From an uncultured Planctomycetota bacterium (GTDB lineage: Bacteria; Planctomycetota; Planctomycetia; Isosphaerales; Isosphaeraceae), in the NCBI GenBank assembly GCA_963737655.1, contig CAVTTN010000002.1, positions 6,720,001 to 6,784,000 of the forward strand: a stretch of 64,000 nucleotides of DNA. The letters are read 5' to 3'. The notes under the pieces are model-generated. The model searched no databases. It saw nothing but the letters and a program-made list of their open reading frames with translations, and was not told where the DNA came from. The first letter of the stretch is position 1; each line of letters opens with the position of its first letter. The position numbers and the translations under genes were made by a program. Of this stretch, positions 49,942 through 64,000 are shown piece after piece.

Positions 49942-51723
49942 GCCTTGGAATCCCGATACTTGGCCTGGATCTCGGCACGAGCACCTGCCTGGGCTGCGCG
50001 ATCCGGGACGGCCGGCCGCAGTTCATCCAGCCCGATCGTTTCTATTATCCGGCCGACTACTCGGGCGACCTGGCCTATCCCGAGTTCATCATGCCGTCGG
50101 TCTTCGCCGTCCATTCCCAGCTGGGCTACCGGACCGGCGAGAGGGCCCTGGAGCAACTGAGAAGAGACCCGAAGCTCGGCCGGGACATGGTTTTGGGGGT
50201 CAAGCGGGACCTGGTCATGGAGGGGCACCGGGTCTATCATCTCGGCCCGTCGAAGGAGGCGTTCTCGCCGTCCCGGATCGTCCAGCAATATGCGTACGTC
50301 CTGCGGGTGGCGGCCGAGAAGCAATGGAAGCTGGGCGAGGGGTCGATCACCGGGGCCGTCGTGGCGGTCCCCACGGCGTTCGGCTCGGTGGAGCGCCTGG
50401 CGACGCGGAAAGCCTGCGAAAAGGCCGGCCTGAGCCGCGTGGAGTTCCTGGACGAGCCGGTGGCCGCCGCGTATTCCCTGAAGCTCCAGGAGGAGGCGAA
50501 GAGGCGGCTGATCATGGTCGTGGACCTCGGCGGAGGGACGCTGGACGTGACCCTCCTGGCCGTGGGCAAGGGGGTCGGGGAAGGGGGGTTCGACGAGCTC
50601 GGCCGGGACGGCGACCCCCGGCTCGGCGGCCTGGACTGGGACCACGAGATCGCCGCCGCCATCGCCCACTCCCAGACGCTCCGCCCGGCCCTGCCCGAGG
50701 ACCTGTTGCGAGACATCCTCCGCCGAGACGATGACCTGAACCGTCGCGACGACGACGACCAGGCCCTGGAACGCGCCGGCCTGGTCCGCTATATCCGCCA
50801 GATCCTCTCCGAGGCGGCCGAGGGGGGCAAGAAGGAGTTCTTCGAGCAGTTCCGGGGCGTCAGCCCCAAGGTCCGGGCCCAGAAGCTGGCTTCGCCCCTG
50901 GAACTCCGGGCCAGCCCGAGCGTCGGCGGCGATCTCTCCAGGGAAATCCCCGGCTTCCCCGAGACCATCCCGACGGTGAAATTCCCGGGGCCGAACTACC
51001 TCAAGCGCACCGCCCCCCTGGTCCAGAGGTGCCTGAAGATCTGCGAGCGAGTCCTGAAGGACGCCTCGGCCGACACCGGCCAGGCCCTGACCTGGAACGC
51101 CCTGGACCGCGTGTATCTGGCCGGCGGAGGGGCGTTCATGGCCAGCGTCGTCCAGGCGTTCGCCGACGTCCTGAAGGACAACCCCAGGGTCACCGAGCCC
51201 TCCCTGGCCGACCAGCCCCAACAGGCCGTGGCCCTGGGCGCCGCCCTCTGCGCCGAGGAGATCCGCAACGGCCGAGAAGTCTTTCACCTGAACAAGAAGC
51301 GATGCCCCCGAGAGGTCGGCCTGCTGATCGACGACGGCGAAGGATCCAAGGACTTCCTCACCCTGGTCCCCCGCCACGCCGCCATCCCCTTCGCCGAGCC
51401 CCCGGACGCACACCCAACCCGTGAACTTCCCCGAGGACTGGAACGGCCGGCTGAGGATCGACGCGGCCGAGAGGGTCGATCCCGAGAACCCTTCCAAGCT
51501 CGTCATGTTCCCCCCATTACTCCTCCGACACCCCCCCTCGGACGCCGCCCGGCCGGAGTGGGCCACGGTCTCCGCCGAGGCCCGGATCGACGGCGTGATC
51601 GACCTGGACATCCGTTGGGGCAACCAGTCCGACACGATCCGCGTCGACATCGACCCCGTCCGCCGGGCGGCCCCGGAGGCCAACGGCCACGCCCACCCGG
51701 TCGACGAAGCCCTCCGACGCTGA
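49938..51723 (+). CDS. Divergent Hsp70-family protein (frameshift near 51415)
   Basis: GLDLGTST, AVVAVPTAFG, LDEPVAAA, VVDLGGGTLDVT, LGGLDWD, VYLAGGG, AVALGAA; C-terminus continues in ORF 51421..51723. Confidence 0.88.
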
Positions 51724-51864
51724 GCCCCGAACTGGCCCGTCCTAGGAGAATGGGAAACCTGGAGGGTCTGAGTAATTTGTTTGCCCGACCCATGCCAAAT
51801 GGTTAAGGTGGGACGCGACGACGACCGCTTCGGCGAGGCCCTCGGGACGAGGTGGACACCCATC

Positions 51865-54747
51865 ATGAGCGGCGAGCATCCGGCGCAGGCGGGCCCCGGG
51901 GACGACGGGCCGGACGGGGCGAGGAAGCCCCTCGACAAATCGACCGGACCGGGCGACGGCTCCGAGACCCAACCCGACCTGGATTGGGAATCGGACGTCT
52001 CGGACTCGCTCGACGACGTGTTCCCCCTGGACTTCCTTTCGACGGGGCCGTCCCAGGACGCCGGGCAAACCGACTCCGCCGAGGACGAGCCGGACGTCCA
52101 GGACGCCGAAATCTGGGCCGAGACCGGCGAGGACGAGGAGATCCTGGACGCCCCCCTGGTCGAGGACTTCGACGACGGCCCCGAACACCCCGCCTCCGAG
52201 GGAGTGGATGCCGTCCTCGGCAAGTCCCGGCCGTCCGGCGAGGGCGAAGCCGTCGCGCCCCCCAGCCCGAAGGACGCGACGCTGAAAAGCGGCTCGACCA
52301 CCGCGAAGGATGCGACGCTGAAGAGCGGCTCGGCGACCTCGAAGGACGCGACGCTGAAAAGCGGCTCGGACGCCTCGAAGGATACGACCCAGACCGAGGA
52401 TATGGAGACATTCTCCGAAGGCGGATACGCCACCCTCGGCAAACGGCGCATCGCGACCGATCCGAGGGAACCGGTGATTCCGACGCCCCCACCTCCGCCT
52501 CCTCCGCCGGAGGATGAGAAGAAGACGCCGCCCCGCGTCCTCCCCCTCGCGGCCTCGCTGGTCCTGGGGGCGGTCACGGCCGGCGGGGGGATGGGGTTCT
52601 GGGCCTGGCAGGAGTCCGGCAAGCAGGCCGTCCGAATCCAGGAGAGCCAGAAACGGGAGCAGGACGCCAGGGCCCAGGCCGAGAAGGCCGAGAAGGAGCG
52701 GAAGGCAATCGCCGACAAGGCCCAGGATACTCTCGACGCCGCCAAGAAGGACGCGGAGGTCAAACTAGCCCAGGAACAGAAGCTCACCAAAGCGGCCAAC
52801 GAAGTCGCCGAACAGGCCCGAAAAGACGCCGCGGCGGCCAAGACGCAGGAAGAGATCGCGACCCAGCTTGCGAAGACGGCCAAGGAGCAGCAGGAGGAAG
52901 CGGATGCGAAGGCGGAAACCGCCCGTCATCGCGCGACCTTACTCGCCGATCGCTCGGCGGAGGGTCGGGCCAAGCTCGCCGAGGAGACTAACGACCCGAA
53001 GGAGGCCGCGGGCCATCACCTCGATGCCGCCGACCGTTTTCTGATCGCCGGAAAGCTCGACGAGGCCATCGCCCAGGCCACCAAGGCCCGCGATCGGGCC
53101 CAGAAGGCACAGGACCCGGCCGCCGAACTCGACTCGCTGTTCCTGCTCGTGGCCTCCCTGGAAAAGTCCGGCCGCCTCGAGGATGCCAGGGCCCTCTGCG
53201 ACAAGGCCCAGGCCGTCGAGGGCGGCGACCCGGCGAAGAAGAGCCGCCTGAAGAACCTGGGCGGCTACCTCGACTCGAAGAAACGGCGGGCCGAAGCGGC
53301 CAAGACCGGCGGCAACTCCCTCGGCTCGGCGCGGAGAGGCAGGCCCTCGACCCTGGTCCTCGTCCTCGCCCAGGCCCCGCCCCATGAGCTGCCCAAAGCT
53401 ATCGAGGACGAGTTGAAGGCCGCCCTGGCCGAGGTCCGGGACGACAATCCCGAGTCCTTCGCCCGGGCCGCGAGCCTGGAGATCGAGGCCGGCAACTTCT
53501 TCGCCAAGGACCAGCCGGCGAAGGCCCGGCCGCATTTCGAGGCCGTCCTCTCGCTGGCCCGTCGGGGCCTCTCGGCCTGTGCGGTCCTGGCCCTCTCGGG
53601 AGAGCGGGGCTCCACGATCAACTCCCTGATCCAGACACTTGACGCCGACTCCAAAGAGGCCGACCAGAAGCTCGCCCAACTGCCGGCCCCCACCGACCTT
53701 GCCGGCCAGTTGAAGAAGGCCAAGACGGAGCGCGACAACCTGGAAAAGTCCGAGAAACGCCTCGCCGACCTGGCCGAGCAGATCGCCTCCATGCCCGTCG
53801 GCGAGCGAAAACGCCTGGCCGAGCCGATCCCGGTTCAAAGACTCGACCCGTCGGACAACTCCAGGGAATCGGAAAAGTCCAAGCAATGGCGAGAACAGCT
53901 CTCCTCGGCGGTCTCCGGGGTGATCGCCGAACGGGCCAAGGCCGAGAAGGAGCGCGACAACCTGGAAAAGTCCGAAAAACACCTCGCCGACCTGGCCGAG
54001 CAGATCGCTTCCATGCCGGTTGGGACGCAAAAGCTCCTGGACGGGGCGCTTCCAACCCCGGATCAGAGGCTCGACCCATCGGACAAGTCCAAGGAATGGC
54101 GGGTAAGACTCTCCTCGGCCGTGAGCAAGGTCATCAACGATCGAGCCAAGGCCATCGCCCAGCGGGCCGAGGCCGAGAAGGACCGAGACCAGGCCCGAGC
54201 CGCCTTCGCCGATCGCGCCTCCTGGATCAAGACGGCCCAGGACATCGCCGGGCTCGTGGCCTATGCGACGCCCATCCCGCCCACCACCGCCGGGACCCTG
54301 GAATCGGCCGTGAGTCTCCCGTGGCGAGACGGGTTGGTGGCTCAGGTCCGCCAGGCCCTGGACAAGCGCGGGTCTCCCGTCGCAGGCTCGTCACCGTCGG
54401 TCCAACCCTCATTGCAGAACGAGGTTGCGGCGGAGGCCGAGTTCCTCAGCGGGTGGGACCTCTCGGACCGAGGACAATTCGGCCCAGCCGAGCAAGCGTT
54501 TTCCCGAGGCGGCCGGCTCCTTCCCGCAGAGCCGAAGTTTGCCTATTTCCGCGCCCTGGCCCTGCATGACGCCGGGCGGACCGCCGAGGCCGAACTGGCC
54601 GCCCGCCAGGGTGCCGCCCTGGAATGGGCCCGAGGCCCCGCGACCTCCTCGGTCGATGGCGACCTGATCCGTGTCCAGGGACCCCGGCGGCTCTGGCTCG
54701 AATCGTTCCGGACCACCGGACACGCCCCCGTCGGCGCCTCCTGGTGA
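51865..54747 (+). CDS. Membrane-anchored coiled-coil/TPR-like protein with acidic disordered N-terminus
   Basis: D/E-rich N-terminus, poly-Pro, TM (LAASLVLGAVTAGGGMGFWAW), A/K/E coiled coil, TPR-like helices, C-terminal RVQGPRRLWLE. Confidence 0.8.
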   Translation: MSGEHPAQAGPGDDGPDGARKPLDKSTGPGDGSETQPDLDWESDVSDSLDDVFPLDFLSTGPSQDAGQTDSAEDEPDVQDAEIWAETGEDEEILDAPLVEDFDDGPEHPASEGVDAVLGKSRPSGEGEAVAPPSPKDATLKSGSTTAKDATLKSGSATSKDATLKSGSDASKDTTQTEDMETFSEGGYATLGKRRIATDPREPVIPTPPPPPPPPEDEKKTPPRVLPLAASLVLGAVTAGGGMGFWAWQESGKQAVRIQESQKREQDARAQAEKAEKERKAIADKAQDTLDAAKKDAEVKLAQEQKLTKAANEVAEQARKDAAAAKTQEEIATQLAKTAKEQQEEADAKAETARHRATLLADRSAEGRAKLAEETNDPKEAAGHHLDAADRFLIAGKLDEAIAQATKARDRAQKAQDPAAELDSLFLLVASLEKSGRLEDARALCDKAQAVEGGDPAKKSRLKNLGGYLDSKKRRAEAAKTGGNSLGSARRGRPSTLVLVLAQAPPHELPKAIEDELKAALAEVRDDNPESFARAASLEIEAGNFFAKDQPAKARPHFEAVLSLARRGLSACAVLALSGERGSTINSLIQTLDADSKEADQKLAQLPAPTDLAGQLKKAKTERDNLEKSEKRLADLAEQIASMPVGERKRLAEPIPVQRLDPSDNSRESEKSKQWREQLSSAVSGVIAERAKAEKERDNLEKSEKHLADLAEQIASMPVGTQKLLDGALPTPDQRLDPSDKSKEWRVRLSSAVSKVINDRAKAIAQRAEAEKDRDQARAAFADRASWIKTAQDIAGLVAYATPIPPTTAGTLESAVSLPWRDGLVAQVRQALDKRGSPVAGSSPSVQPSLQNEVAAEAEFLSGWDLSDRGQFGPAEQAFSRGGRLLPAEPKFAYFRALALHDAGRTAEAELAARQGAALEWARGPATSSVDGDLIRVQGPRRLWLESFRTTGHAPVGASW
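52270..52389 (+). repeat. 36-bp intragenic tandem repeat (KDATLKSGSxxx x3 plus a partial unit)
   Basis: AAGGA(C/T)GCGACGCTGAA(A/G)AGCGGCTCG at 52270, 52306, 52342. Confidence 0.9.
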
Positions 54748-54954
54748 GGCTCGCCCCGGGTCGATCCATTCTCAAGGCGGGAAAGACTTTCCGCGTCTCG
54801 AACCCTCTCCCCCGCCTCGGGGGAGGGGGCGTCGGGAGGCCCGGGTTTCACCGACGAATCGACCCGGAAGGTCCGCCCCACCCCCTCGCAACCGGCCGAC
54901 CTCCCGGTTAAGCTCTCGGGGACCAGTCCCCTCCGGTGGCGGGAGGCCCTGCCC

Positions 54955-56463
54955 ATGCCGAACAAGTATTCGATCGGGAGCGTCAACCTGGTCAGCTCCA
55001 CCGACCCCTCGGCCCTCGCCCCGGGGCCGAGCCGCCTCGCCCGGGGCCCCGTTCCGCCTCCTGGTCGTCGGCGACTTCCGCGGCCATCGCGGGGCCGACT
55101 CCCCTCCGCTCGCCTCCCGGAAGCCGGTGAAGGTCGATCGCGACAACTTCGACGACGTCCTGGCCAGGCTCGCCCCGAGCCTCCAGTGGACCGGACGCGA
55201 CGCCGAATCCTCGATCTCGCTTCGGTTTACGGAAATCGACGACTTCCACCCCGACCGCGTCCTCGAACGCTCGGGGACGTTCGACGCCCTCAAGAAACTC
55301 CGCCGAGACCTGGACGACCCCTCGAAGATCGACGACGTGGCCGACCGCCTGGGCATGAGGGTCGCCCCGCCCCCCTCGGCCTCCTCGCCGCCTCCCGGCA
55401 CCGACCCCGCGCCGATCGACCTGCTCGACCAGATCCTCCTCCAGACGCCCACCGTGCCGACCGGCCCGGGGCTGCTCGGCCCGTGGGAGGCGTTCCTCGA
55501 CACCCTCACCACCGGCCATCGCGTCGCCGGCGCCGACCCCCGCCGCGCCGACCTCGACCGCGCCCTCCAATCGGCCGAGGCCGACCTCCTCCGCGCCCTC
55601 CTCCACCATCCCGAATTCCAGTCCCTGGAAGGACTTTGGCGAGGTCTCCGCTTCCTCACCCGCCGCCTCGACACCGACGGCTCGCTCTCCATCTGGGCCC
55701 TCGACGCCTCGAAATCCGAGATCGCCGCCGACCTCTCCGCCGGCGCCCCGGCCCTGAAGAAACTGCTGATCGAGCCGACCGTCGGCACCCCCGGGGGACA
55801 GCCCTGGGCCGTGATCTCGGCCGCTTTCGAATTCGGACCCGTCCCGACCGATCTGGCTACCCTGGAAGGGCTTGCGGTCGTCGGACGGGTCTGCGGCGCC
55901 CCCGTCCTGGCCGGCGCGTCCCCCGAGTTCCTCGGCGTCGAATCGCTGGCCGAGACCCCCGACCCCGACGACTGGCCGGGCCTGGCGGATTCCGACCTCG
56001 AAGCCGCCTGGTCGGCCCTCCGCCGAGGCCCGAACGCCGCGTTCCTGGGCCTGGCGATCCCCCGATTCCTCCTCCGCCAGCCCTATGGCAGCGACGGGGA
56101 ATCCATCGACACCTTCCCATTCGAAGAAATCGGCCCGGGGCAGGGGAATTCGGCCTTCCTGTGGGGCAATCCGGCCATCGCCCTCGGCGAAATGCTCGGC
56201 CGGGCCTTCTCCATCGGCGGCTGGAACCTCCGGCTCGGCACCACCAACGAGATCGACGGCCTCCCCGCCCACATCGACCGCCGGGGCGAGGAATCGCTCA
56301 TGACCCCCTGCGCCGAGGCGCCCTGGGCCTCCGGGCCGGCGAGGCGATCCTCGACCGCGGCCTGATGCCCCTGCTCTCCATCGCCGGACGCCCCGCGATC
56401 CGCCTCTCCCGGTTCCAGTCCGTGGCCGACCCGGTCCGCCCCCTGGCCGGTCGGTGGGGCTGA
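54955..56463 (+). CDS. Type VI secretion sheath-like protein, TssB-like plus TssC-like regions in one gene (two frameshifts)
   Basis: PFRLLVVGDFRG...VDRDNFDDVLARLAPSL...LRFTEIDDFHPD (TssB-like), then LLHHPEFQSLEGLWRGLRFL...PRFLLRQPYG...FLWGNPA...GLMPLLS (TssC-like); shifts near 55040 and 56320. Confidence 0.8.
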   Translation: MPNKYSIGSVNLVSSTDPSALAPGPSRLARGPVPPPGRRRLPRPSRGRLPSARLPEAGEGRSRQLRRRPGQARPEPPVDRTRRRILDLASVYGNRRLPPRPRPRTLGDVRRPQETPPRPGRPLEDRRRGRPPGHEGRPAPLGLLAASRHRPRADRPARPDPPPDAHRADRPGAARPVGGVPRHPHHRPSRRRRRPPPRRPRPRPPIGRGRPPPRPPPPSRIPVPGRTLARSPLPHPPPRHRRLALHLGPRRLEIRDRRRPLRRRPGPEETADRADRRHPRGTALGRDLGRFRIRTRPDRSGYPGRACGRRTGLRRPRPGRRVPRVPRRRIAGRDPRPRRLAGPGGFRPRSRLVGPPPRPERRVPGPGDPPIPPPPALWQRRGIHRHLPIRRNRPGAGEFGLPVGQSGHRPRRNARPGLLHRRLEPPARHHQRDRRPPRPHRPPGRGIAHDPLRRGALGLRAGEAILDRGLMPLLSIAGRPAIRLSRFQSVADPVRPLAGRWG

Positions 56464-57125
56464 TCGAGGCACGGAGCAGCGAAGGCGCGAAGAGGCTCAC
56501 GGGACGTTCCCCAAACATCAAGCGGTCGGACATCGCCCCGGCCCCAGCCGGAACCTGTTGCAAGACACCATCGCGACCGACCGCCCCAACGATCACCCCT
56601 CCTCGAATTTCTTCAAAAGCGTCGCCACAAGACCCCGATCGAGGAGCGCCCGGGGACCACACGCAGCCCCGCCGCGCAAGGCCCAAAGTGCGCCGGTTTC
56701 GGACCCATTTTTGTCCCCGAAACTATTCGGAGCCAATCGCCCGATGTTCCAGGAGGGAAATCGGTTCGGGAAACCTCACAAAAACATCCAAACACCAGCG
56801 TGTTTCCCCGCGCAGAAGTGACTGCGCATCGAAAACGGCCGTTTTTCCGCCGTTTGCGCGCTTTTTGGGGAAAATGTGTTGTCAAATATTGTCAACTTCC
56901 CAGGTTCGAGAAAATTAGCGGAAATCATGGAGTCCAGTCGGCACGATCGAAAACCCCAATAGTAGCGAGGAATCGGGGCCGCACGACGGAAGGCCGCGCG
57001 ACTCGCCTGGTCCCCTTCGCACCAGGTTTTCACGACCGCCGGGGAAACGGGTCGGAAGCCCGAAATAAGTTTATTTAGGCGATTTACGCGTTTCGCCGCT
57101 CCGGCCTCTTTGGTCTCGACGACCC

Positions 57126-58082
57126 TCAGGGGGTGTCCAGGGGGCTGCGGACCCCGAGCGGGCCGGACTGAAGAACGTGGGTATAAATCATGGTAGTGCG
57201 AACATCTTCATGCCCCAGGAGTTCCTGGACCGTCCGGATGTCGCGCCCTTCTTCCAGGAGGTGGGTGGCGAAGCTATGGCGGAGCGTGTGGGGGCTGGCC
57301 GGCTTGACCAGGCCCGCGCGGAGGGCGGCCCGTCGCACCGCCCTCTGCAGCGCCTGCTCTCCCACGTGGTGACGGCGGACCGCCCCCGATCGCGGATCGA
57401 CCGACTTCGTCCCCGCGGGGAAGACGTACTGCCAGCCGAGCGAGCGATCCGCCTCGGGATACTTCCTCGCCAGGGCGAACGGCAGGTGGACCCGCCCGAA
57501 CCCCTGGCGGAGGTCCTGCGAATGGAGGTCCTTCACCCGGGCGACCTGGCGCCGAAGCGCCTCGACCAGCGCGACCGGGAGCACCGTCACGCGGTCCTTC
57601 TGCCCTTTGCCGTCGCGAACGACCAGGTGCTTCTGCCCGAAATCCACGTCCTTGACGCGCAAGCGGACGCATTCCATCAGCCGGAGTCCGGACCCGTAAA
57701 GCAGCCCGGCCATCAGCCCGAACGTCCCGTCGAGCTGCGCCAGAAGAGCGCGAACCTCCTGGCGAGTCAGGACCACCGGCAGCCGCTCGGGCCTCCGGGC
57801 CCTGGGCAGGTCGCCAAACTCCTCCAGAGGACGCTTCACGACCTCCCGGTAGAGGAACAACAGGGCGCTGAGTGCCTGGTTCTGGGTCGAGGCCGCCACA
57901 TTCCGATCCACCGCCAGATGGGTCAGGAAGGCCCCAACCTCCACCTCGCCCATTTCCTCGGGATGCCGCTTCTCGTGAAACAAGATGAACTGCTTCGCCC
58001 AGCGGACATAAGCATCCTCAGTGCGAAGGCTATAATGCAACGTCCGGGCAGCCTCCCGGACCCGGTCCAGCAGCATCGACAT
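57126..58082 (-). CDS. intI: Integron integrase
   Basis: [44 protein letters not shown], IntI-specific insert ([12 protein letters not shown]...WQYVFP...RRHH), [26 protein letters not shown]. Confidence 0.98.
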
Positions 58083-58179
58083 GGTCGTGTCGTCCCGATC
58101 AACGAATCAAGGAAGAGAAAATCCAAAGAAAATCCTTGCAAGGCGAACTCCCCGCCGGCAAAATCAACAACCGGCCCGA

Positions 58180-58231
58180 GATTATACGTCCGAAACGACG
58201 TGATAAACCACATCATTTCGGACGTATAATC
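58180..58231. promoter_or_regulatory. 16-bp perfect inverted repeat carrying outward-facing TATAAT boxes between intI and attI
   Basis: GATTATACGTCCGAAA (58180-58195), 20-nt spacer, TTTCGGACGTATAATC (58216-58231). Confidence 0.65.
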
Positions 58232-58239
58232 CCGCAAAT

Positions 58240-58282
58240 TCGGGGATTCTGCGTCACTTTCGATGTCTACTTCATGTTAGGC
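58240..58282 (+). other. Putative attI site
   Basis: First GTTAGGC core (58276-58282) upstream of intI, at the AT-rich to GC-rich transition, not preceded by an attC hairpin. Left boundary approximate. Confidence 0.75.
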
Positions 58283-58513
58283 GGCTCAGGAGTCGAAGCC
58301 TTCGGTCGTGCTCGTCGTCGGCCTCGCCGGTCGCGCCTCGGCTCGACGACGCCATCGGTCGGGCCCCTGGAGTCGGCCTCGGCGGTGGTGCGCGTCGTCG
58401 CCCTCGCCGGCCGCGCCCCCGAGGTCGGGCCCGTCGGCCGGCGCCCCCTTGCCAACGCCGTCGGTCCGTGCCAGGATCGTCGGTGTCGGCGCGTGGGGCG
58501 TCGCCGGGGCGCC

Positions 58514-58613
58514 GCCTAACCCGGCGCTGCAGCGGACCCGGCCCGCGGTCGACGATCACTCTCCTCTCAATCTCGCCGGGCGCGGGCCGGTCCGCTGAGC
58601 TTTGTCGTTAGGC
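58514..58613 (+). other. attC site 1 (intact)
   Basis: GCCTAAC...CTGCAGCGGACC...GGTCCGCTGAG...GTTAGGC. Confidence 0.93.
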
Positions 58614-58978
58614 GGCTGACTCACGGGTCATTCGCAAGGTCTGATGGCAGCGTGCGACGTCGCCGGGGGCCCGGTCGGTCCCGTGCTTCGAGCGTCGTCG
58701 CCGCCGTGTCATCGCGCATCGCCGGTGGCCTCGGTCCTCACCGCGGTGGTGTCGTTGCCGTGGGGGCTCGCGTGCGTTCGTTGCCGCGGGGGTCTTGCGT
58801 CGTGCTCACGCGCCGCCTCCCCGTGAACTCTTCGCGCCGGCGGTTCGGCATCGGTTGATACTATGTGGGCATGATCATCGATCGGCCCGCATCCCCCCCG
58901 GCCCCCGCGACGACGGGGACGGCCCGATCCGGCTCGGCGGGGCTTGCGGTCGGGCGCCCCGCCTCCGACCCGTCGCCC

Positions 58979-60331
58979 TCACGACGGCGGCGACGGCGGC
59001 GACTTCGCCACCAGCTCGTAGCCCAGCGACCTCGCCTTGCGCCGCAGCGACCGCTCCTGCTTCGCGCGCACCTCGGCCTCGTACTCCGCCAGCGACCTCG
59101 ACACGTACTCCTCGCCGTGCCTGAGCATCCGGTACACCAGCCGCGACAGCTTGTGCGCCGTCGCCGTGATCGCCCCCCGGCCGCCGATCCGGCCCTTGAT
59201 CCGCCGGTAGAACTGGCCCGTCGCCGTCGCCGTCCGGCCCGCCGCCTGCGCCGCCATCCGCAGCGCCTGACCCACCCGGTTCTTGCCCTTGCGGGGCGTG
59301 CGACGCCGCTCGGTCTTGTTGCTCCGGTCGGTCCGCGGGCAGAGGCCCAGCCAGCTGGCGAAGTGCTTCTCGCTCGGGAACCGCCCCACGTCGCCGCCGA
59401 GCTCGGCCAGGATCACCGTCGCCGTCGTCGCGTCGATCCCCTCGATGGCCGTCAGGTCCACGCCGATCGCCCGGGCCAGCTTGGCCGGGGCGTCGAACCG
59501 CACGTCGTTGGCCTTGCGGCCGCGCTTGCGGGGCCTCGCCGCGATCGGCCGGCCTTCGGAGCGGTCGGGCAGGCGGTCCAGCTCCTCGGCGATCCGGGCG
59601 TCGCACTCGTCGACCTGGCGGTGGAGGTAGTGGTACAGGTCGGACGCCTGCCTCAGGGCGAACAGGTGCTCGGGCCGCCAGGTGCCCTCCAGGGCCCGGG
59701 CGATCTCCGCCTCGTCCCGGGCGCACCGCTCGTGCCGCAGCGCGGCCAGCTTCGTGGCGTCCCGCTCGCCGGCGAGGATCGCGGCGATGATCGCCGTGCC
59801 GGTGACGCCCGTGATGCTGCTGACGACCTCGGTCAGCTTCACATTCATCTGCTCCAAAGCCTTCTGCATGTGCTGGACGTGGTGCGAGGCGTACCGCACG
59901 AGCATCTGCCGCTGCCGCCAGTAGCCGCGCAGGGCCAGGACGGCCCCGGGCGGGCGGAAGGACGGGCGGAGCAGGCCGCACGAGTGGAGGCGCTGGAGCC
60001 ACTGGCAGTCGAGCCGGTCGGTCTTGGGCCGGGCGCCGCAGTGGCTGGCCTGGCTCGGCTCGATGAGGAAGACCTCGAAGCCGCGCGATTCGAGCAGCTC
60101 GAACAGGGGGATCCAGTAGACGCCGGTGGACTCCAGGACCACCGAGGTGACGCCCTCGGCCCGGAACCAATCGGCCAGGGCGTGGAGGTCGGCCGAGCAG
60201 GCGCCGAAGGTGCGGACCCGTCCGGGCCCGACGCAGGCGACGTGGTTGTCGGAGTGGACGTCGACGGCGGCGGCGTGGGGGTGGACGACCGGCAGGGACG
60301 CGTCGGGATCGGGGGGCGTGCGGCGACTCAT
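58979..60331 (-). CDS. IS110-family DEDD transposase/recombinase
   Basis: AAVDVH, VLESTGVYW, KTDRLD catalytic residues; C-terminal FPSEKHFASWLGLCP...S and AITATAHKLSRLVYRML. Confidence 0.96.
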   Translation of the reverse strand: MSRRTPPDPDASLPVVHPHAAAVDVHSDNHVACVGPGRVRTFGACSADLHALADWFRAEGVTSVVLESTGVYWIPLFELLESRGFEVFLIEPSQASHCGARPKTDRLDCQWLQRLHSCGLLRPSFRPPGAVLALRGYWRQRQMLVRYASHHVQHMQKALEQMNVKLTEVVSSITGVTGTAIIAAILAGERDATKLAALRHERCARDEAEIARALEGTWRPEHLFALRQASDLYHYLHRQVDECDARIAEELDRLPDRSEGRPIAARPRKRGRKANDVRFDAPAKLARAIGVDLTAIEGIDATTATVILAELGGDVGRFPSEKHFASWLGLCPRTDRSNKTERRRTPRKGKNRVGQALRMAAQAAGRTATATGQFYRRIKGRIGGRGAITATAHKLSRLVYRMLRHGEEYVSRSLAEYEAEVRAKQERSLRRKARSLGYELVAKSPPSPPS

Positions 60332-60359
60332 GGCGAGGGCTCCGGCGGGTGGGGGGCCA

Positions 60360-60580
60360 AGCCGTCGCGGGCCGAGAGGGGGTCCGGGGACGAGGTAGTC
60401 TCCCCGACGGGAACGTCGCGGGGCCGTGTTGACACGGCGCCGCGGGTCACCAATGATGGGGCCACGGCCTCTCGGGCCAAGCTAACCTGCGGGCGGCGAG
60501 CACCAGGGAGATGACGGCCGGGAGGCCCGCGGCGGCGACGCCGATCGTACCGCGCCCCGGTTCACGTCCGTCGGGGAGCG
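60360..60580 (-). ncRNA. Putative bridge/seek RNA of the IS110 element (boundaries and strand inferred)
   Basis: Non-coding, hairpin-rich, conserved in blocks with the 380-bp mini-elements; contains CTAACCT (target match) and CTCCCCG (element-end match). Confidence 0.65.
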
Positions 60581-60601
60581 GTCGCAGGCCGCGCGGAGAG
60601 T

Positions 60602-60698
60602 TAACCTTGCGCTGCAGCGGACCCGGCCACGGGCCGCGCCTTGTGTCCTTTCCGGCTCGTCGGTCCGTGGACCGGTCCGCTGAGCTTTGGCGTTAGGC
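60602..60698 (+). other. attC site 2 (left box interrupted by IS110)
   Basis: TAAC...CTGCAGCGGACC...GGTCCGCTGAG...GTTAGGC. Confidence 0.92.
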
Positions 60699-60907
60699 GG
60701 CTGACTCACGGGTCATTCGCGAGGCCCGTTCGCAGCGAAGCAAGCGACGTCGCCGGCGGCTCGGTCGGTCCCGTGCTTCGAGCGTCGTCACCGCCGTGTC
60801 GTCGAACATCGCCGCGGGCATCGGTCCTCACCGCCGCGGGTTCGTTGCCGTGGGGTCTCGCGTGCGTTCGTTGCCGTCGGGGTCTTGCGTCGTGCCTTCG
60901 CGCCGCC

Positions 60908-61287
60908 TCTTCGTGAACTCTTTGGCTGGGAACGGCCATCGACGCGCGACACTACCCCAACCCCAGGCTTTGTGGCCGGGCAGCGGCGAGGTCCGGGTAG
61001 CAAACCGACGGATTCAAGAGCGGCGGACGAGGCGCGGGCCGAGAGGGGAGTCGGTTACGTTTGCAGTCTCTTCGACGGGAACATCCCCGCGAGTCGGCTC
61101 GCGGGGCGTCGCCAATGACCGGATCACGACCTCTCGGGCCAGGCTAACCTACGGGCAGGGAGCACCAAGGTGGAGACGGCCGGGAGGCCCGCGCCACACT
61201 CAGGCTACGCCGCGCCGGGTCGGCGGGCAAGTCGTCCCCGACCCCCGTTCACGCCCCGTCGGGAGCGGACGAAGGCCGCAGGATGGT
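60908..61287 (-). mobile_element. 380-bp non-autonomous IS110-related mini-element, copy 1 (in attC 3)
   Basis: Between GCC 60905-60907 and TAAC 61288-61291; ends and right ~250 bp homologous to the IS110 ends and non-coding region; no transposase. Confidence 0.9.
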
Positions 61288-61384
61288 TAACCTTGCGCTG
61301 CAGCGGACCCGGCCACGGGCCGCGTTCTTTGTTCTTTCACGCTCACAGGTCCGTGGACCGGTCCGCTGAGCTTTGGCGTTAGGC
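61288..61384 (+). other. attC site 3 (interrupted)
   Basis: TAAC...CTGCAGCGGACC...GGTCCGCTGAG...GTTAGGC. Confidence 0.92.
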
Positions 61385-61408
61385 GTCTTCGCAGCGGAGG
61401 GGCACGCG

Positions 61409-61855
61409 GTGGGGATCACTCCGGCGACGCGGAAGCCGGTCCACCTCCTGACGGCTGCCGATCTCGCGGCGTTCCCGGTCTGGGAGTACGCCGACGATGA
61501 GGAGTCCGTCGAGGGTCGGGATGAGACCTGGATCCGCCCTGTCCCCGTCGAAGTCATGCCTTCCCGGAGCTATGCCATCGTCGCGGCGGACTTCGAGGCT
61601 GCTTGCGGTCGTCGCTTCCAGGGGTATGTCTTCGTCTCCACGTTGGAGGGCGCCCCCGACGCATGCCAGGGCGTCATCTGGTCAGGTTCGTCGGGCCTCT
61701 TCGTCGCTAACCCGGAGGCTGTCGTCTACAAGGGATCGCGGGCTGAGTTGCTCGCAGGGCTGGGCGTCGGCGAGCATGAGTTGTTCCCCCTGTCCTTCCG
61801 TCCGCGCGTTCCGGTCGAGGGTATGCAAGGGCTCTGGTCAGGCGTGTTACCCTAA
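61409..61855 (+). CDS. Cassette-encoded hypothetical protein
   Basis: GGAGG RBS, GTG start, RKPVHLLTAADLAAFPVWEYADDEE...DETWIRPV; stop abuts attC 4. Confidence 0.8.
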   Translation: MGITPATRKPVHLLTAADLAAFPVWEYADDEESVEGRDETWIRPVPVEVMPSRSYAIVAADFEAACGRRFQGYVFVSTLEGAPDACQGVIWSGSSGLFVANPEAVVYKGSRAELLAGLGVGEHELFPLSFRPRVPVEGMQGLWSGVLP

Positions 61856-61856
61856 C

Positions 61857-61958
61857 GCCTAACCCGGCGCTGCAGCGGACCCCGGCCACGGGCCGCGCTT
61901 TCTCTTCTGTTGTAGCTCAGTGGTCCGTGGCCGGGTCCGCTGAGCTTGGTCGTTAGGC
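61857..61958 (+). other. attC site 4 (intact)
   Basis: GCCTAAC...GTTAGGC with the same inner boxes. Confidence 0.93.
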
Positions 61959-61977
61959 GTCAGGGGGCGATCTCGCC

Positions 61978-62421
61978 GTGAGCGTCAAAGTCCTCGCGCT
62001 CGACCTTGAGCGAACGCTGATCGATGACGCCCTGAGCGCCCGCCCACGGCCCGGCCTCCGCGATTTCCTCGCCTTCTGCGACGAGAGCTTCACGCGGGTC
62101 GCCATCTACACCACGGTCGAGGAGACCGACGCCCGCGAAGTCATTGATGAACTGGCCCGTGAGGGCCACGTCACTCAGGCCCTGCTAGCGCGGCTGGAGT
62201 ACATCGATTGGTCGGGCGAGCACAAGGATCTTGCGTATGTGCCCGGCGTCGCCGCGGAAGAGGTGGTGCTCGTCGATGACGACGCCGGTTGGATCCGGCC
62301 GGATCAGCGAGGGAGCTGGGTCGCCATCAAGCCCTGGGACGGCGGGCCGGACGGCGAGTTGCCCCGCATCAGGTCAATACTCCAGGCCCTGGTCGCCGGT
62401 GTGGCCGCGCCGGATGCCTAA
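61978..62421 (+). CDS. Cassette-encoded HAD-superfamily (NIF/FCP1-like) protein
   Basis: VLALDLERTLI...RPGLRDFL...AIYT...KDL...VVLVDD; the second Asp of DxD is Glu; stop lies in the attC TAA. Confidence 0.75.
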   Translation: MSVKVLALDLERTLIDDALSARPRPGLRDFLAFCDESFTRVAIYTTVEETDAREVIDELAREGHVTQALLARLEYIDWSGEHKDLAYVPGVAAEEVVLVDDDAGWIRPDQRGSWVAIKPWDGGPDGELPRIRSILQALVAGVAAPDA

Positions 62422-62515
62422 CCTCGCGCTGCAGCGGACCCGGCCCGCCGCGGCGTTTTCTGGTATCATCAAGCCTTCACTTGGCGGTCCGGTCCGCTGA
62501 GCTTTGGCGTTAGGC
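62416..62515 (+). other. attC site 5 (intact)
   Basis: GCCTAAC...GTTAGGC with the same inner boxes. Confidence 0.93.
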
Positions 62516-62557
62516 GGCTCGACCTCAACCGTGGACGACGTGCACGATGACCCCTCG

Positions 62558-62977
62558 ATGGAGATACGCTCCTGCCACGGCAGGCGTGGCCTCCGCTTCC
62601 ACAGCCGGCGCGGAGACTACTTCCACGCGAGCGTCGAGGGTGACGGCCCGAGTGCCTCCGTGCGGGTCTGGGGCTACACCGATTGCCACCTCCTCGTCGA
62701 CCTCTTCGAGTCGATCGCCCACGACTGGCGCGGCTGGCAAGGCGAGCGTTCCTGGTCCTCCATCGAGGATGAGTTCCGCATCGGTGCCACCACCGACAAG
62801 GCGGGCCATGTCACCCTCTCGGTTGTGCTTGCTCACTGTGACGGGATGGACGACTGGCGGCTCTCGGTGCCGGTCTTCACCGAGGCCGGACAGCTCGAAA
62901 AGATCGCCCGAGAGGTCGCTCGCTTCTTCTCCGGCGATGCGAGCGGCCCCCCGCCCGCAGATGCCGCCTCTTCGTGA
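62558..62977 (+). CDS. Cassette-encoded hypothetical protein (DUF6228-like; start may be GTG 62531)
   Basis: LFESIAHDWRGWQGERSWSSIEDEF...GHVTLSV...EAGQLEKIAREVARFF; last two codons and stop come from the mini-element. Confidence 0.75.
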   Translation: MEIRSCHGRRGLRFHSRRGDYFHASVEGDGPSASVRVWGYTDCHLLVDLFESIAHDWRGWQGERSWSSIEDEFRIGATTDKAGHVTLSVVLAHCDGMDDWRLSVPVFTEAGQLEKIAREVARFFSGDASGPPPADAASS

Positions 62978-63348
62978 ACTCTTTGGCTGGGAACGGCCAT
63001 CGACGCGCGACACTACCCCAACCCCAGGCTTTGTGGCCGGGCAGCGGCGAGGTCCGGGTAGCAAACCGACGGATTCAAGAGCGGCGGACGAGGCGCGGGC
63101 CGAGAGGGGAGTCGGTTACGTTTGCAGTCTCTTCGACGGGAACATCCCCGCGAGTCGGCTCGCGGGGCGTCGCCAATGACCGGATCACGACCTCTCGGGC
63201 CAGGCTAACCTACGGGCAGGGAGCACCAAGGTGGAGACGGCCGGGAGGCCCGCGCCACACTCAGGCTACGCCGCGCCGGGTCGGCGGGCAAGTCGTCCCC
63301 GACCCCCGTTCACGCCCCGTCGGGAGCGGACGAAGGCCGCAGGATGGT
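62969..63348 (-). mobile_element. 380-bp non-autonomous IS110-related mini-element, copy 2 (in attC 6)
   Basis: Identical by eye to 60908-61287; between GCC 62966-62968 and TAAC 63349-63352. Confidence 0.9.
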
Positions 63349-63447
63349 TAACCTCGCGCTGCAGCGGACCCCGGCCACGGGCCGCGCCTTCTGCGTCTTC
63401 GTAACTCGCTGGTCCGTGGCCGGGTCCGCTGAGCTTGGTCGTTAGGC
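63349..63447 (+). other. attC site 6 (interrupted)
   Basis: TAAC...CTGCAGCGGACC...GGTCCGCTGAG...GTTAGGC. Confidence 0.92.
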
Positions 63448-63464
63448 GGCGGGAGGCTCCCGCG

Positions 63465-63785
63465 ATGGAATGGCCCGAACCGTGGTGCGATGTCGCCGAT
63501 CTCGGCCCCGACTTCGCGGCTACGTTCGAGCGCGTCCTGGTGCGCGAGGTCGCGAGGGGCCATCCGCTCCACGGCATCACGGTCGCAGCGGTCGGCAAGC
63601 GCGACGGCACCGACGACGTGCTATTTCGGCTGCTCGACGGCTCCGGGCGTGTTGCTGCCGTGCATCTGACCTGGACGCGCTCACCTCCCGAACGGCCACC
63701 CTGGCCGGCAACCGAACTATTCGCCAATTTCGAGGCGTTTGCCCGGCATCAGATGCAACCCGACCACGAGGAATACGTGACGTAG
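63465..63785 (+). CDS. Cassette-encoded hypothetical protein
   Basis: GGAGG RBS; MEWPEPW...EVARGHPLHG...DDVLFRL...AAVHLTW...PWPATELF. Confidence 0.8.
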   Translation: MEWPEPWCDVADLGPDFAATFERVLVREVARGHPLHGITVAAVGKRDGTDDVLFRLLDGSGRVAAVHLTWTRSPPERPPWPATELFANFEAFARHQMQPDHEEYVT

Positions 63786-63806
63786 CGGCGGGCACAGAAC
63801 GCCGCC

Positions 63807-64000
63807 TCTTCGTGAACTCTTTGGCTGGGAACGGCCATCGACGCGCGACACTACCCCAACCCCAGGCTTTGTGGCCGGGCAGCGGCGAGGTCCGGGTAGC
63901 AAACCGACGGATTCAAGAGCGGCGGACGAGGCGCGGGCCGAGAGGGGAGTCGGTTACGCTTGCAGTCTCTTCGACGGGAACATCCCCGCGAGTCGGCTCG
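63807..64000 (-). mobile_element. Mini-element copy 3 (runs off the right edge; presumably in attC 7)
   Basis: Starts after GCCGCC (63801-63806); matches copies 1 and 2 except T>C at 63959. Confidence 0.88.

Follow-up and report, generated by a model that had tools for sequence, protein, structure and literature searches.

The locus analysed here is a 64,000-nucleotide stretch (the window; positions 6,720,001 to 6,784,000 of contig CAVTTN010000002.1, assembly GCA_963737655.1) from an uncultured Planctomycetota bacterium of the family Isosphaeraceae. Its last part holds an integron cassette array into which one full-length insertion sequence (IS) of the IS110 family and three copies of a 380-bp element lacking a recombinase gene, here called the mini, are inserted. 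The mini and its relation to the full IS are the subject of this report. The features concerned are listed below in window coordinates, with a vertical bar marking the junction in a DNA motif.

57135..58073, minus strand: integron integrase gene (intI), TIGR02249, start of the cassette array
58514..58613, plus strand: unoccupied attC site, GCC|TAACCCG, with a guide mismatch at position 6
58818..60601, minus strand: full IS110-family element, 1784 bp, sitting at GCC|TAAC of an attC site
58979..60331, minus strand: DEDD recombinase (transposase) gene, 450 aa, PF01548 and PF02371
60602..60698, plus strand: attC site interrupted by the full IS, right part (TAACCTT...GTTAGGC); left part GCC at 58815-58817
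60908..61287, minus strand (strand of the RNA): mini copy 1, 380 bp, without a recombinase gene, from the sequence and BLAST
61288..61384, plus strand: attC site interrupted by mini copy 1, right part; left part GCC at 60905-60907
62969..63348, minus strand: mini copy 2 (RNA core 63087-63258), 100% identical to copy 1
63807..64000, minus strand: mini copy 3, clipped by the window end; complete in the genome, to window-equivalent 64186

The array is headed by a stop-free frame on the minus strand (57135-58073) that scored 474.6 bits against TIGR02249, with a curated cut-off of 265; the window array is therefore a real integron. Cassettes follow intI on the plus strand and are separated by attC sites of the form GCCTAACC..GCGCTGCAGCGGACC...GTTAGGC, in which R''(GCCTAAC) and R'(GTTAGGC) form an imperfect palindrome at the cassette ends, adjoining intI. 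Genome-wide, 58 attC sites of the GCC|TAAC type were found in arrays. Minis are spread over 8 arrays, and an integrase match above the cut-off was present only in the array of the window.

The full IS carries the DEDD (RuvC-like) recombinase and Tnp domains of the IS110 family in the broad sense. The product of 58979-60331 matched Pfam PF01548 (1.9e-17) and PF02371 (5.9e-18) and, distantly, the IS621 transposase 8wt6_A (E 1.5e-10). Six intact copies were found in the genome: a 1784-bp form with three identical copies and a 97% variant, 1802 bp long, also with three. Two fragments were found besides. With 270 bp upstream of the gene (60332-60601) and 161 bp downstream (58818-58978), the element has the long RNA-bearing left end and short right end of the IS110 subgroup (criterion from PMC11208160). 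Its sub-terminal inverted repeat, CGTGAAC/GTTCACG, measures 7 bp and reaches 11 bp in relatives, beyond the none or 2-3 bp of that subgroup and within the 7-17 bp of the IS1111 subgroup; the RNA region, however, lies upstream of the start codon at 60331 and not downstream of the gene as in IS1111. To judge from these features, the clade mixes traits, with an RNA position and end-length ratio of the IS110 type and a 7-11-bp sub-terminal repeat of the IS1111 type. A decayed copy of the resident IS lies outside the window at C2:6791945-6792592. It retains the first 390 bp and last 143 bp, joined by about 115 bp of unrelated, A/T-richer DNA with an inverted repeat of its own; most of the RNA is gone and the copy is the only one of its kind.

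In recombinase orientation, some 118 bp of the right end make up one part of the mini; the other, some 262 bp, comes from the left end and the non-coding DNA upstream of the recombinase gene. The mini's left 118 bp are the counterpart of the full-IS end that lies downstream of the gene, positions 119-290 can be aligned with the stretch immediately upstream of the recombinase start codon, and the first 15 and last ~42 bases resemble the full-IS ends. In copy 1 the sub-terminal inverted repeat is placed asymmetrically, with CGTGAAC (60912-60918) and GTTCACG (61247-61253) lying 4 and 34 bases from the ends. No recombinase remnant was found in the mini; the open reading frames (ORFs) that cross the element begin beyond its limits and are GC-rich frames due to chance, and one-base indels between mini sub-lineages disrupt every frame. 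The mini resembles MITEs (miniature inverted-repeat transposable elements) in being short, transposase-free, IS-like at the ends and present in many copies (380 bp, n=28), and it lacks terminal inverted repeats and a target-site duplication, as expected for an IS110 derivative. On this anatomy we class it as an IS110-family derivative and not as an autonomous member, given that it encodes no recombinase.

An initial annotation, made from the window alone, had described three 380-bp copies with a single base difference, which split attC at the same base as the full IS, share its end motifs and the ordered blocks of 60332-60601, and encode no transposase. All of this held. The three copies are present and differ only by T at 61060 (copy 1) versus C at 63959 (copy 3), the diverged region of each full IS matched the mini by BLAST with 75% identity over 167 nt, in agreement with the alignment, and no conserved ORF is present. 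The spread that the annotation had proposed far exceeds three copies: BLAST of the 380 bp against the three-contig genome, with the flanks tabulated, gave 28 full-length minis, compared with 6 intact full ISs, and every one lies in an attC site.

Identity to the query was at least 97.9% for 24 minis (including one copy at 98.9%), 95% for one and 88% for two. Among the 28 minis, 10 distinct sequences occur, one of them shared by 15 copies, and any two minis differ by a median of 1 base, which points to a burst of very recent copying. All 28 are flanked by ..C| on the left and |TAACCT on the right, in a single orientation relative to attC. The three bases preceding the mini are GCC in 26 of the 28 and GAC and TCC in the other two, and 26 distinct left flanks were counted. 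In the window, the minis are preceded by ..GCC and followed by TAACC(T)..GCGCTGCAGCGGACC, the full IS has the same flanks, and all four insertions (full IS and three minis) divide attC between GCC and TAAC. No target duplication was seen at 28/28 mini and 6/6 full-IS flanks, as is usual for the IS110 family.

The act of insertion was captured by a cassette present in both states, occupied by a mini at C2:1971064 and empty in a duplicate at C2:6787901. The 100 bases left of the mini recur with 100% identity at C2:6787801-6787900 and there run straight into TAACCTCGCGCTGC. At the junction, 60/60 bases on the left are identical and the right flank differs by a 1-base indel, leaving GCC|TAAC with no duplication; the 380 bp therefore entered between GCC and TAAC without duplicating the target. 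A second occupied and empty pair, 89% similar, gave the same picture.

Two kinds of mosaic were noted among the minis. A chimeric mini outside the window (G000:C2:1975837-1976216) has the left 118 bp of the amplified subfamily and a right part of the old 88% subfamily, which suggests recombination between mini copies. In addition, minis at C2 1679757/1977493 and 1678865/1976601 form pairs that share only the left or only the right flank; the attC site at C2:1977493 ends 12 bases past the mini. These pairs look as if arrays had exchanged DNA by way of mini copies, and cassettes would be shuffled as a result.

The non-coding part of the mini carries an RNA core with three guide segments, and the full IS carries its counterpart:

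61026..61197, minus strand: RNA core of mini copy 1, 172 nt, with outer helix, target-binding arm and donor-binding arm
61144..61150, minus strand: right-flank target guide, mini copy 1; plus-strand text CTAACCT, RNA AGGUUAG, 6/6 to the flank TAACCT
61168..61173, minus strand: probable left-flank target guide, mini copy 1; RNA CCACCU against CCGCC|T, 5/6
61068..61074, minus strand: donor guide, mini copy 1; plus-strand text CTCTTCG, RNA CGAAGAG, 6/6 to its own left end TCTTCG
61202..61230, minus strand: candidate internal promoter of the mini RNA, TTGCCC and TAGCCT separated by 17 nt (RNA sense), immediately upstream of the outer helix
60359..60537, minus strand: counterpart of this core in the full IS, resembling a bridge RNA and situated in non-coding DNA upstream of the recombinase gene (entry 'fullA' in alignment A1)

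Homologues of the RNA core were sought in 120 other genomes of the family and were found in 16/120 by BLAST and in 22/120 by a covariance model. Among the 27 BLAST loci, a 62-82% identical recombinase gene lay beside the match in 15, and 3 were 30-base chance matches. The other 9, which gave no tblastn match, comprised four recombinase-less minis, two mini copies or pieces from a related genome, and three truncated genes or contig ends. Eighteen cores were aligned (A1), and the structure read from them comprises an outer helix and two arms, one for the target and one, with an inner hairpin, for the donor. Pairing was kept in 93.5% of 868 cells over the 18 members, compared with 42-51% (maximum 51.3%) when the partners were slid, and 8 pairs had changed on both sides, in 34 cells. 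None of 500 shuffles reached the covariation score, the percentage paired or the number of doubly changed cells, and 28/500 reached the count of such pairs. At pair 11/170 of the outer helix, GC, AU, CG, UA and GU were all seen, and in the donor arm the inner hairpin differs in sequence between full IS, mini and relatives, yet pairs in all three. A further helix over the donor guide (columns 131-137/151-157) was 80% paired and broken in the mini, and was kept out of the model.

The RNA is read in the sense of the recombinase gene. In that sense 812/868 cells pair, compared with 723/868 on the opposite strand (101 G-U cells). The mini core folded with a minimum free energy of -84 kcal/mol and a z of -3.57 on the minus strand, 0/200 shuffles being as good, whereas z was -1.79 on the plus strand. 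Covariance model R1 scored the mini core at 159.9 bits and the full-IS core at 154.8 bits. An Rfam search of window 50000-64000 at E up to 1 gave no bridge-RNA family, only two chance matches, to a snoRNA and a miRNA. Upstream of the outer helix, a TANNNT hexamer occupies a fixed place in 14 of the 18 family members. It reads TAGCCT, with TTGCCC 17 nt before it, in the amplified mini subfamily, and TAGCCC in three old low-copy minis; both promoter-like hexamers are conserved in the mini of the related genome, where the spacer between them differs. The hexamer pair would fit an internal promoter. An antisense sigma-70-like site (TTGACA-17-AATGAT, 10/12; window 60429-60457, plus strand) lies inside the donor-arm hairpin of the full IS and is not conserved in the mini.

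The loops of the two arms were then compared with the DNA that they would recognise. An early version of this test, which took the best match within 230 nt downstream, was non-discriminating (cognate mostly 6/7, non-cognate mean 5.19/7). In the alignment, the 3' strand of the target arm has the form C-T-NNNNN in window orientation and equals the right flank. Junctions were set by a guide-blind rule, namely the first repeat plus 38-44 bases, ending in GT; this rule excluded L127, the end of which is GC and not GT, although by eye its flank TGAAAG agrees with its guide 6/6. Over 28 elements the target guide matched the right flank 6/6 in 23, 5/6 in 3, 4/6 in 1 and 2/6 in 1. Twelve distinct target guides were present (TAACCT, TAACCC, TGACCC, TCCACC, TCCACT, TTCGCT, TATGTG, TTTTTG, TGCCAA, TAAATG, TAATAT and GAACAC). 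Their summed match was 64/72, compared with a non-cognate mean of 2.36/6, and 0/100000 permutations reached this sum. Relatives from other genera with the guide TCCACC (L089, L090, L092, L096, L097, L082 and L130) are all inserted in one conserved repeat of ~70 nt, ..TTTGT(T/C)ACC|TCCACCGCCGCTCCGATAGC.., which is a non-attC target.

Similarly, the 3' strand of the donor arm, in the format CCCG-N-guide-AG, equals the left end of the element that carries it, matching 6/6 in 22 of 23 elements and 5/6 in the remaining one. Five end types are involved: most relatives have TCCCCA, the resident IS shares TCCCCG with a same-genus relative, the minis of this genome and of one same-genus genome have TCTTCG, and two distant members have TCCCAA and TCTTAA. 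The full IS reads CTAACCT as target guide (60482-60488) and CTCCCCG as donor guide (60400-60406; both plus-strand readings). In the target arm, the 5' strand is similar to the left flank followed by T, with a cognate mean of 4.44/6 against a non-cognate mean of 3.48 and 0/100000 permutations as good, in a test that allowed three registers and among related classes. It is perfect (6/6) in three unusual flanks, TACAC|T, TTACC|T and AGCCC|T, and is probably the left-flank target guide. The fold and these guide counts describe a non-coding-end RNA with loops complementary to target and donor, as in the IS110 family. They bear out the suggestion of the initial annotation that the element has kept its own guide RNA: the fold covaries in the recombinase sense, and the loop strands covary with flanks and own ends.

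The target guide was also reflected in the choice of sites within this genome. All 34 occupied attC sites (28 by minis, 6 by ISs) read TAACCT, and the 24 empty ones comprise 9 TAACCT and 15 TAACC[C/G]. Occupancy was 34/43 for TAACCT and 0/15 for TAACC[C/G] (Fisher 4.4e-8). The guide, through its sixth base, appears to explain which attC sites are hit.

The mini is set apart from the resident IS as a lineage. Their RNA cores are 74% identical, and in a tree of the cores the mini and the mini of a same-genus genome form a clade that is sister to the resident-IS clade (support 0.975). Minis of this genome were compared with each other and with that of the related genome:

mini lineage, ends: identity 93-100%
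mini lineage, RNA core: identity 88-93%
mini lineage, left spacer: identity 72-81%
mini lineage, variable stretch: identity 71-88%

Target and donor guides are invariant within the lineage, and in 5/7 variable scorable pairs the change is from G-C to G-U, which keeps pairing in the RNA sense only. The core identity, the sister clade and the code of ends and donor guide (TCTTCG versus TCCCCG) upheld the view of the initial annotation that the mini is not a simple deletion product of the neighbouring IS. Simple derivatives do exist elsewhere: recombinase-less elements of 476-489 bp were found in four other genera (L070, L072, L082 and L118), the first three of which retain the start-codon region of the recombinase, and the G038 derivative is 97% identical to a neighbouring full IS. 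As far as the search shows, each of the four is single-copy. Such deletion products have therefore arisen more than once, but divergence and amplification appear to be confined to the lineage of this genus.

A full-length element with the code of the mini was not found in this genome, in the 120 family genomes, or in two collection scans with a mini-specific 18-mer. The scans returned 25 and 46 loci, 71 in all, of which 70 were chance matches; only L152 fits model R1, and it is a mini. A second IS110-family gene near one diverged mini was considered as its partner and set aside, being 38% identical and having only a 22-bit R1 match upstream. This gene (L217:1620-3027; G000:C2:4847119-4848526) is a 429-aa ORF with the weak match just upstream, and is probably a distant relative of the same RNA type. 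Among the relatives, L086 and L098 (G039:C193) form a near-tandem pair, in which the left end of the next IS copy lies 11 bases past the right end of the first, TGT|TATGTGCCATC|TCCCCATGAAC.

We consider it likely that the 380-bp repeat is a non-autonomous, MITE-like IS110 derivative that carries its own bridge RNA and is served by a recombinase in trans. An RNA of ~172 nt would be made from the window minus strand, with the outer helix closing a junction of two internal-loop arms. In the target arm, the 3' strand would pair with the R'' box of attC in its right half, C|TAACCT, and the 5' strand probably with the other DNA strand at ..CCGCC|T; in the donor arm, the 3' strand would pair with the left end of the mini, (C/T)|TCTTCG. 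The RNA would be bound by a DEDD recombinase provided in trans, its likeliest source being the six intact 1784/1802-bp ISs in the same arrays, and this enzyme would recombine the joined ends of the mini (GGATGGT|TCTTCG) with attC at GCC|TAAC. The mini would thus be inserted in one orientation without duplication, and the attC site split. Anatomy, copy number, insertion site, empty site, covariation of the fold and of the guides with flanks and ends, and the RNA strand are shown by the sequences; from these we infer that the RNA is transcribed from a promoter, that the resident recombinase binds it, that the mini passes through a circular or copy-out intermediate and perhaps that it is active at present.

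Since the mini's donor guide agrees with the end of the mini itself but not with the resident-IS end, the mini should depend on its own RNA. With its own RNA needed and the enzyme borrowed, it would be a parasite that brings the guide. With less assurance, though still on the favourable side, we propose that the minis form a self-guided, enzyme-free lineage. It would consist of a bridge-RNA gene and two recognised DNA ends, with a donor code (TCTTCG, guide CGAAGAG) unlike that of the IS it exploits. Present in two species of the genus, it outnumbers its helper 28:6 and, together with it, holds 34/43 cognate attC sites, splitting them and probably immobilising the cassettes.

Several observations weigh against this interpretation. 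The structure was read from the same 18 sequences on which the pairs were counted. Two elements, L126 and L129, agree with their flanks at only 2/6 and 4/6 positions. The left-flank guide is weak, reaching 5/6 in the mini and only 4/6 in the resident IS with three registers allowed. A guide for the right end of the element was not found by eye in the 5' strand of the donor arm, where only a conserved CGA and GU match; the last bases of the right end vary between relatives, and no RNA segment covaries with them. Duplicate sites make the Fisher test overstate independence, and some minis lie in duplicated segments, so that insertion events number fewer than 28. When sigma-70 promoters and terminators were scanned for, the only promoter-like site was that on the plus strand in the full-IS hairpin, and nothing was called on the mini's RNA strand. 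At only 74% core identity, the mini RNA may not be accepted by the resident recombinase, and the related genome with the same mini type (77% complete) shows no close full-length partner, having only recombinases 40-43% identical and one fragment.

The last two points would also be accounted for if the minis had been amplified by a full-length element of their own, now lost, with TCTTCG ends and a matching RNA; the resident IS would then not mobilise them and they would be stranded relics. The mini RNA clade is indeed sister to the resident-IS clade and not nested in it, the two being 74% identical, and no full-length element with the mini code turned up in any of the searches, including the related genome that has the mini type without a close partner. 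We nevertheless regard a lost partner as unlikely. Copying was very recent (15 identical copies, median difference 1) and took place beside six intact resident recombinase genes, the helices and conserved blocks are all common to the resident-IS RNA, and similar guide RNAs serve recombinases that are only 46% identical, according to PMC11187229. The minis might instead be passive cargo, moved by resident recombinase and resident RNA in trans, with the RNA region that they carry being a functionless leftover. Mini and resident-IS target guides do read the same site, CTAACCT, and in the assays reported in PMC11187229 the cargo that moved had nothing but IS ends as flanks. This explanation seems very improbable to us, given that the resident donor guide TCCCCG differs from the mini end TCTTCG at 2/6 positions and the mini has a matching guide, that core and guides of the mini are conserved in a recombinase-less lineage while the spacers drift, and that the resident-IS derivative deprived of most of its RNA (C2:6791945-6792592) has remained single-copy.

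The least probable explanation, to which we give hardly any weight, is that the copies spread with cassettes through integron recombination, segmental duplication or assembly error, and not by transposition of the 380 bp. Two mini pairs that share a left flank and two that share a right flank are in keeping with it. The 26 different left flanks in 8 separate arrays, the cassette found with and without the element at a precise boundary, and an occupancy that tracks the sixth base of the guide argue against it, and the left flanks together with the 10 distinct sequences did not bear out the assembly duplication that the initial annotation had named as a possible refutation.

The preferred interpretation, a guide-carrying derivative served in trans, is in keeping with what has been reported for the family. 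The RNA is required by IS110/IS1111 recombinases both to form circles and to insert, it acts in trans, and mini-ISs with ends only move when given RNA and enzyme (PMC11187229, PMC11208160); excision is mediated by the same bridge RNA (PMC13626964), and a copy-out pathway has been reported (bioRxiv 10.1101/2025.10.25.684509). Bridge or seek RNAs were described in 2024 in autonomous IS110/IS1111 elements (Durrant 2024, PMC11208160; Siddiquee 2024, PMC11187229). As described there for IS621 and ISEc21, the elements studied here have a DEDD recombinase with both Pfam domains, an upstream non-coding region longer than the other end (270 versus 161 bp), two internal-loop arms that read target and donor on both DNA strands, no target duplication, and guides naturally reprogrammed between relatives. 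In contrast to them, the mini has no recombinase gene, the clade has a 7-11-bp sub-terminal inverted repeat, a defining feature of IS1111, and the strand order of the target guide would be that of IS1111 (PMC11187229) if 'top' there denotes the recombinase-sense strand. The resident protein of 450 aa is distant from IS621 (E 1.5e-10), and the RNA has no Rfam family match.

The initial annotation had also pointed to IS1111 elements that target attC. Such elements make up the IS1111-attC group (ISPst6, ISKpn4 and ISPa25; Tetu and Holmes 2008; Post and Hall 2009, via PMC11187229). This group shares with our elements the orientation-specific insertion at one attC end, an RNA guide from the non-coding region, and membership of the IS110/IS1111 superfamily with sub-terminal repeats. 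The likeness did not extend to the placement of the RNA, which lies downstream of the gene in that group and upstream of it here, in the IS110 manner; by RNA position the present clade is not a member. The elements of that group are autonomous, and the passages of PMC11187229 consulted mention no recombinase-less amplified derivative.

The closest natural precedent is the MITEPpu9/ssr9 module of ISPpu9 in Pseudomonas putida (PMC12288879). It is likewise a small non-autonomous unit with IS110-like ends and more copies than the IS, forms its own minicircles, and has been proposed to use the IS recombinase in trans. MITEPpu9 carries the Ssr9 small RNA while its bridge RNA stays with the recombinase gene, whereas the mini carries the guide RNA and a donor code of its own; MITEPpu9 has 8 copies in REP (repetitive extragenic palindromic) sequences, compared with 28 minis in attC sites. 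The mini also resembles the engineered mini-IS donors of PMC11187229 and PMC11208160, for which ends and matching RNA suffice once enzyme is supplied, but it is a natural lineage that has been kept in two species of the genus and amplified. No description of a recombinase-less element retaining its bridge RNA was found in the full-text literature searched, subscription papers and supplements being outside its scope.

A natural element made of RNA and ends would show that selection acts on RNA plus ends as a unit in its own right. It would also serve as a natural experiment on the RNA parts that are needed, the three guides, helices and candidate promoter being conserved while the spacers drift. 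For engineering, the 12 reprogrammed target guides and five donor codes on one scaffold provide a covariation data set for an IS110 type far from IS621. For the integron, more than half of one attC class in the genome is split, which should block excision of those cassettes and may fix the order of the arrays. If the interpretation is true, RNA-guided recombinases have natural hyperparasites that carry the programme only, and guide and enzyme can evolve as separate replicators.

Three further observations concern the window around the insertions. The cassette ends at 58649-58832 and 60739-60922 are paralogous (88% identical), with the full IS following one and a mini the other. Upstream of the integron lie tandem 36-nt repeats in three overlapping 54-nt copies (window 52268-52393) and a 116-nt direct repeat with a spacing of 222 nt (window 53716-54053).

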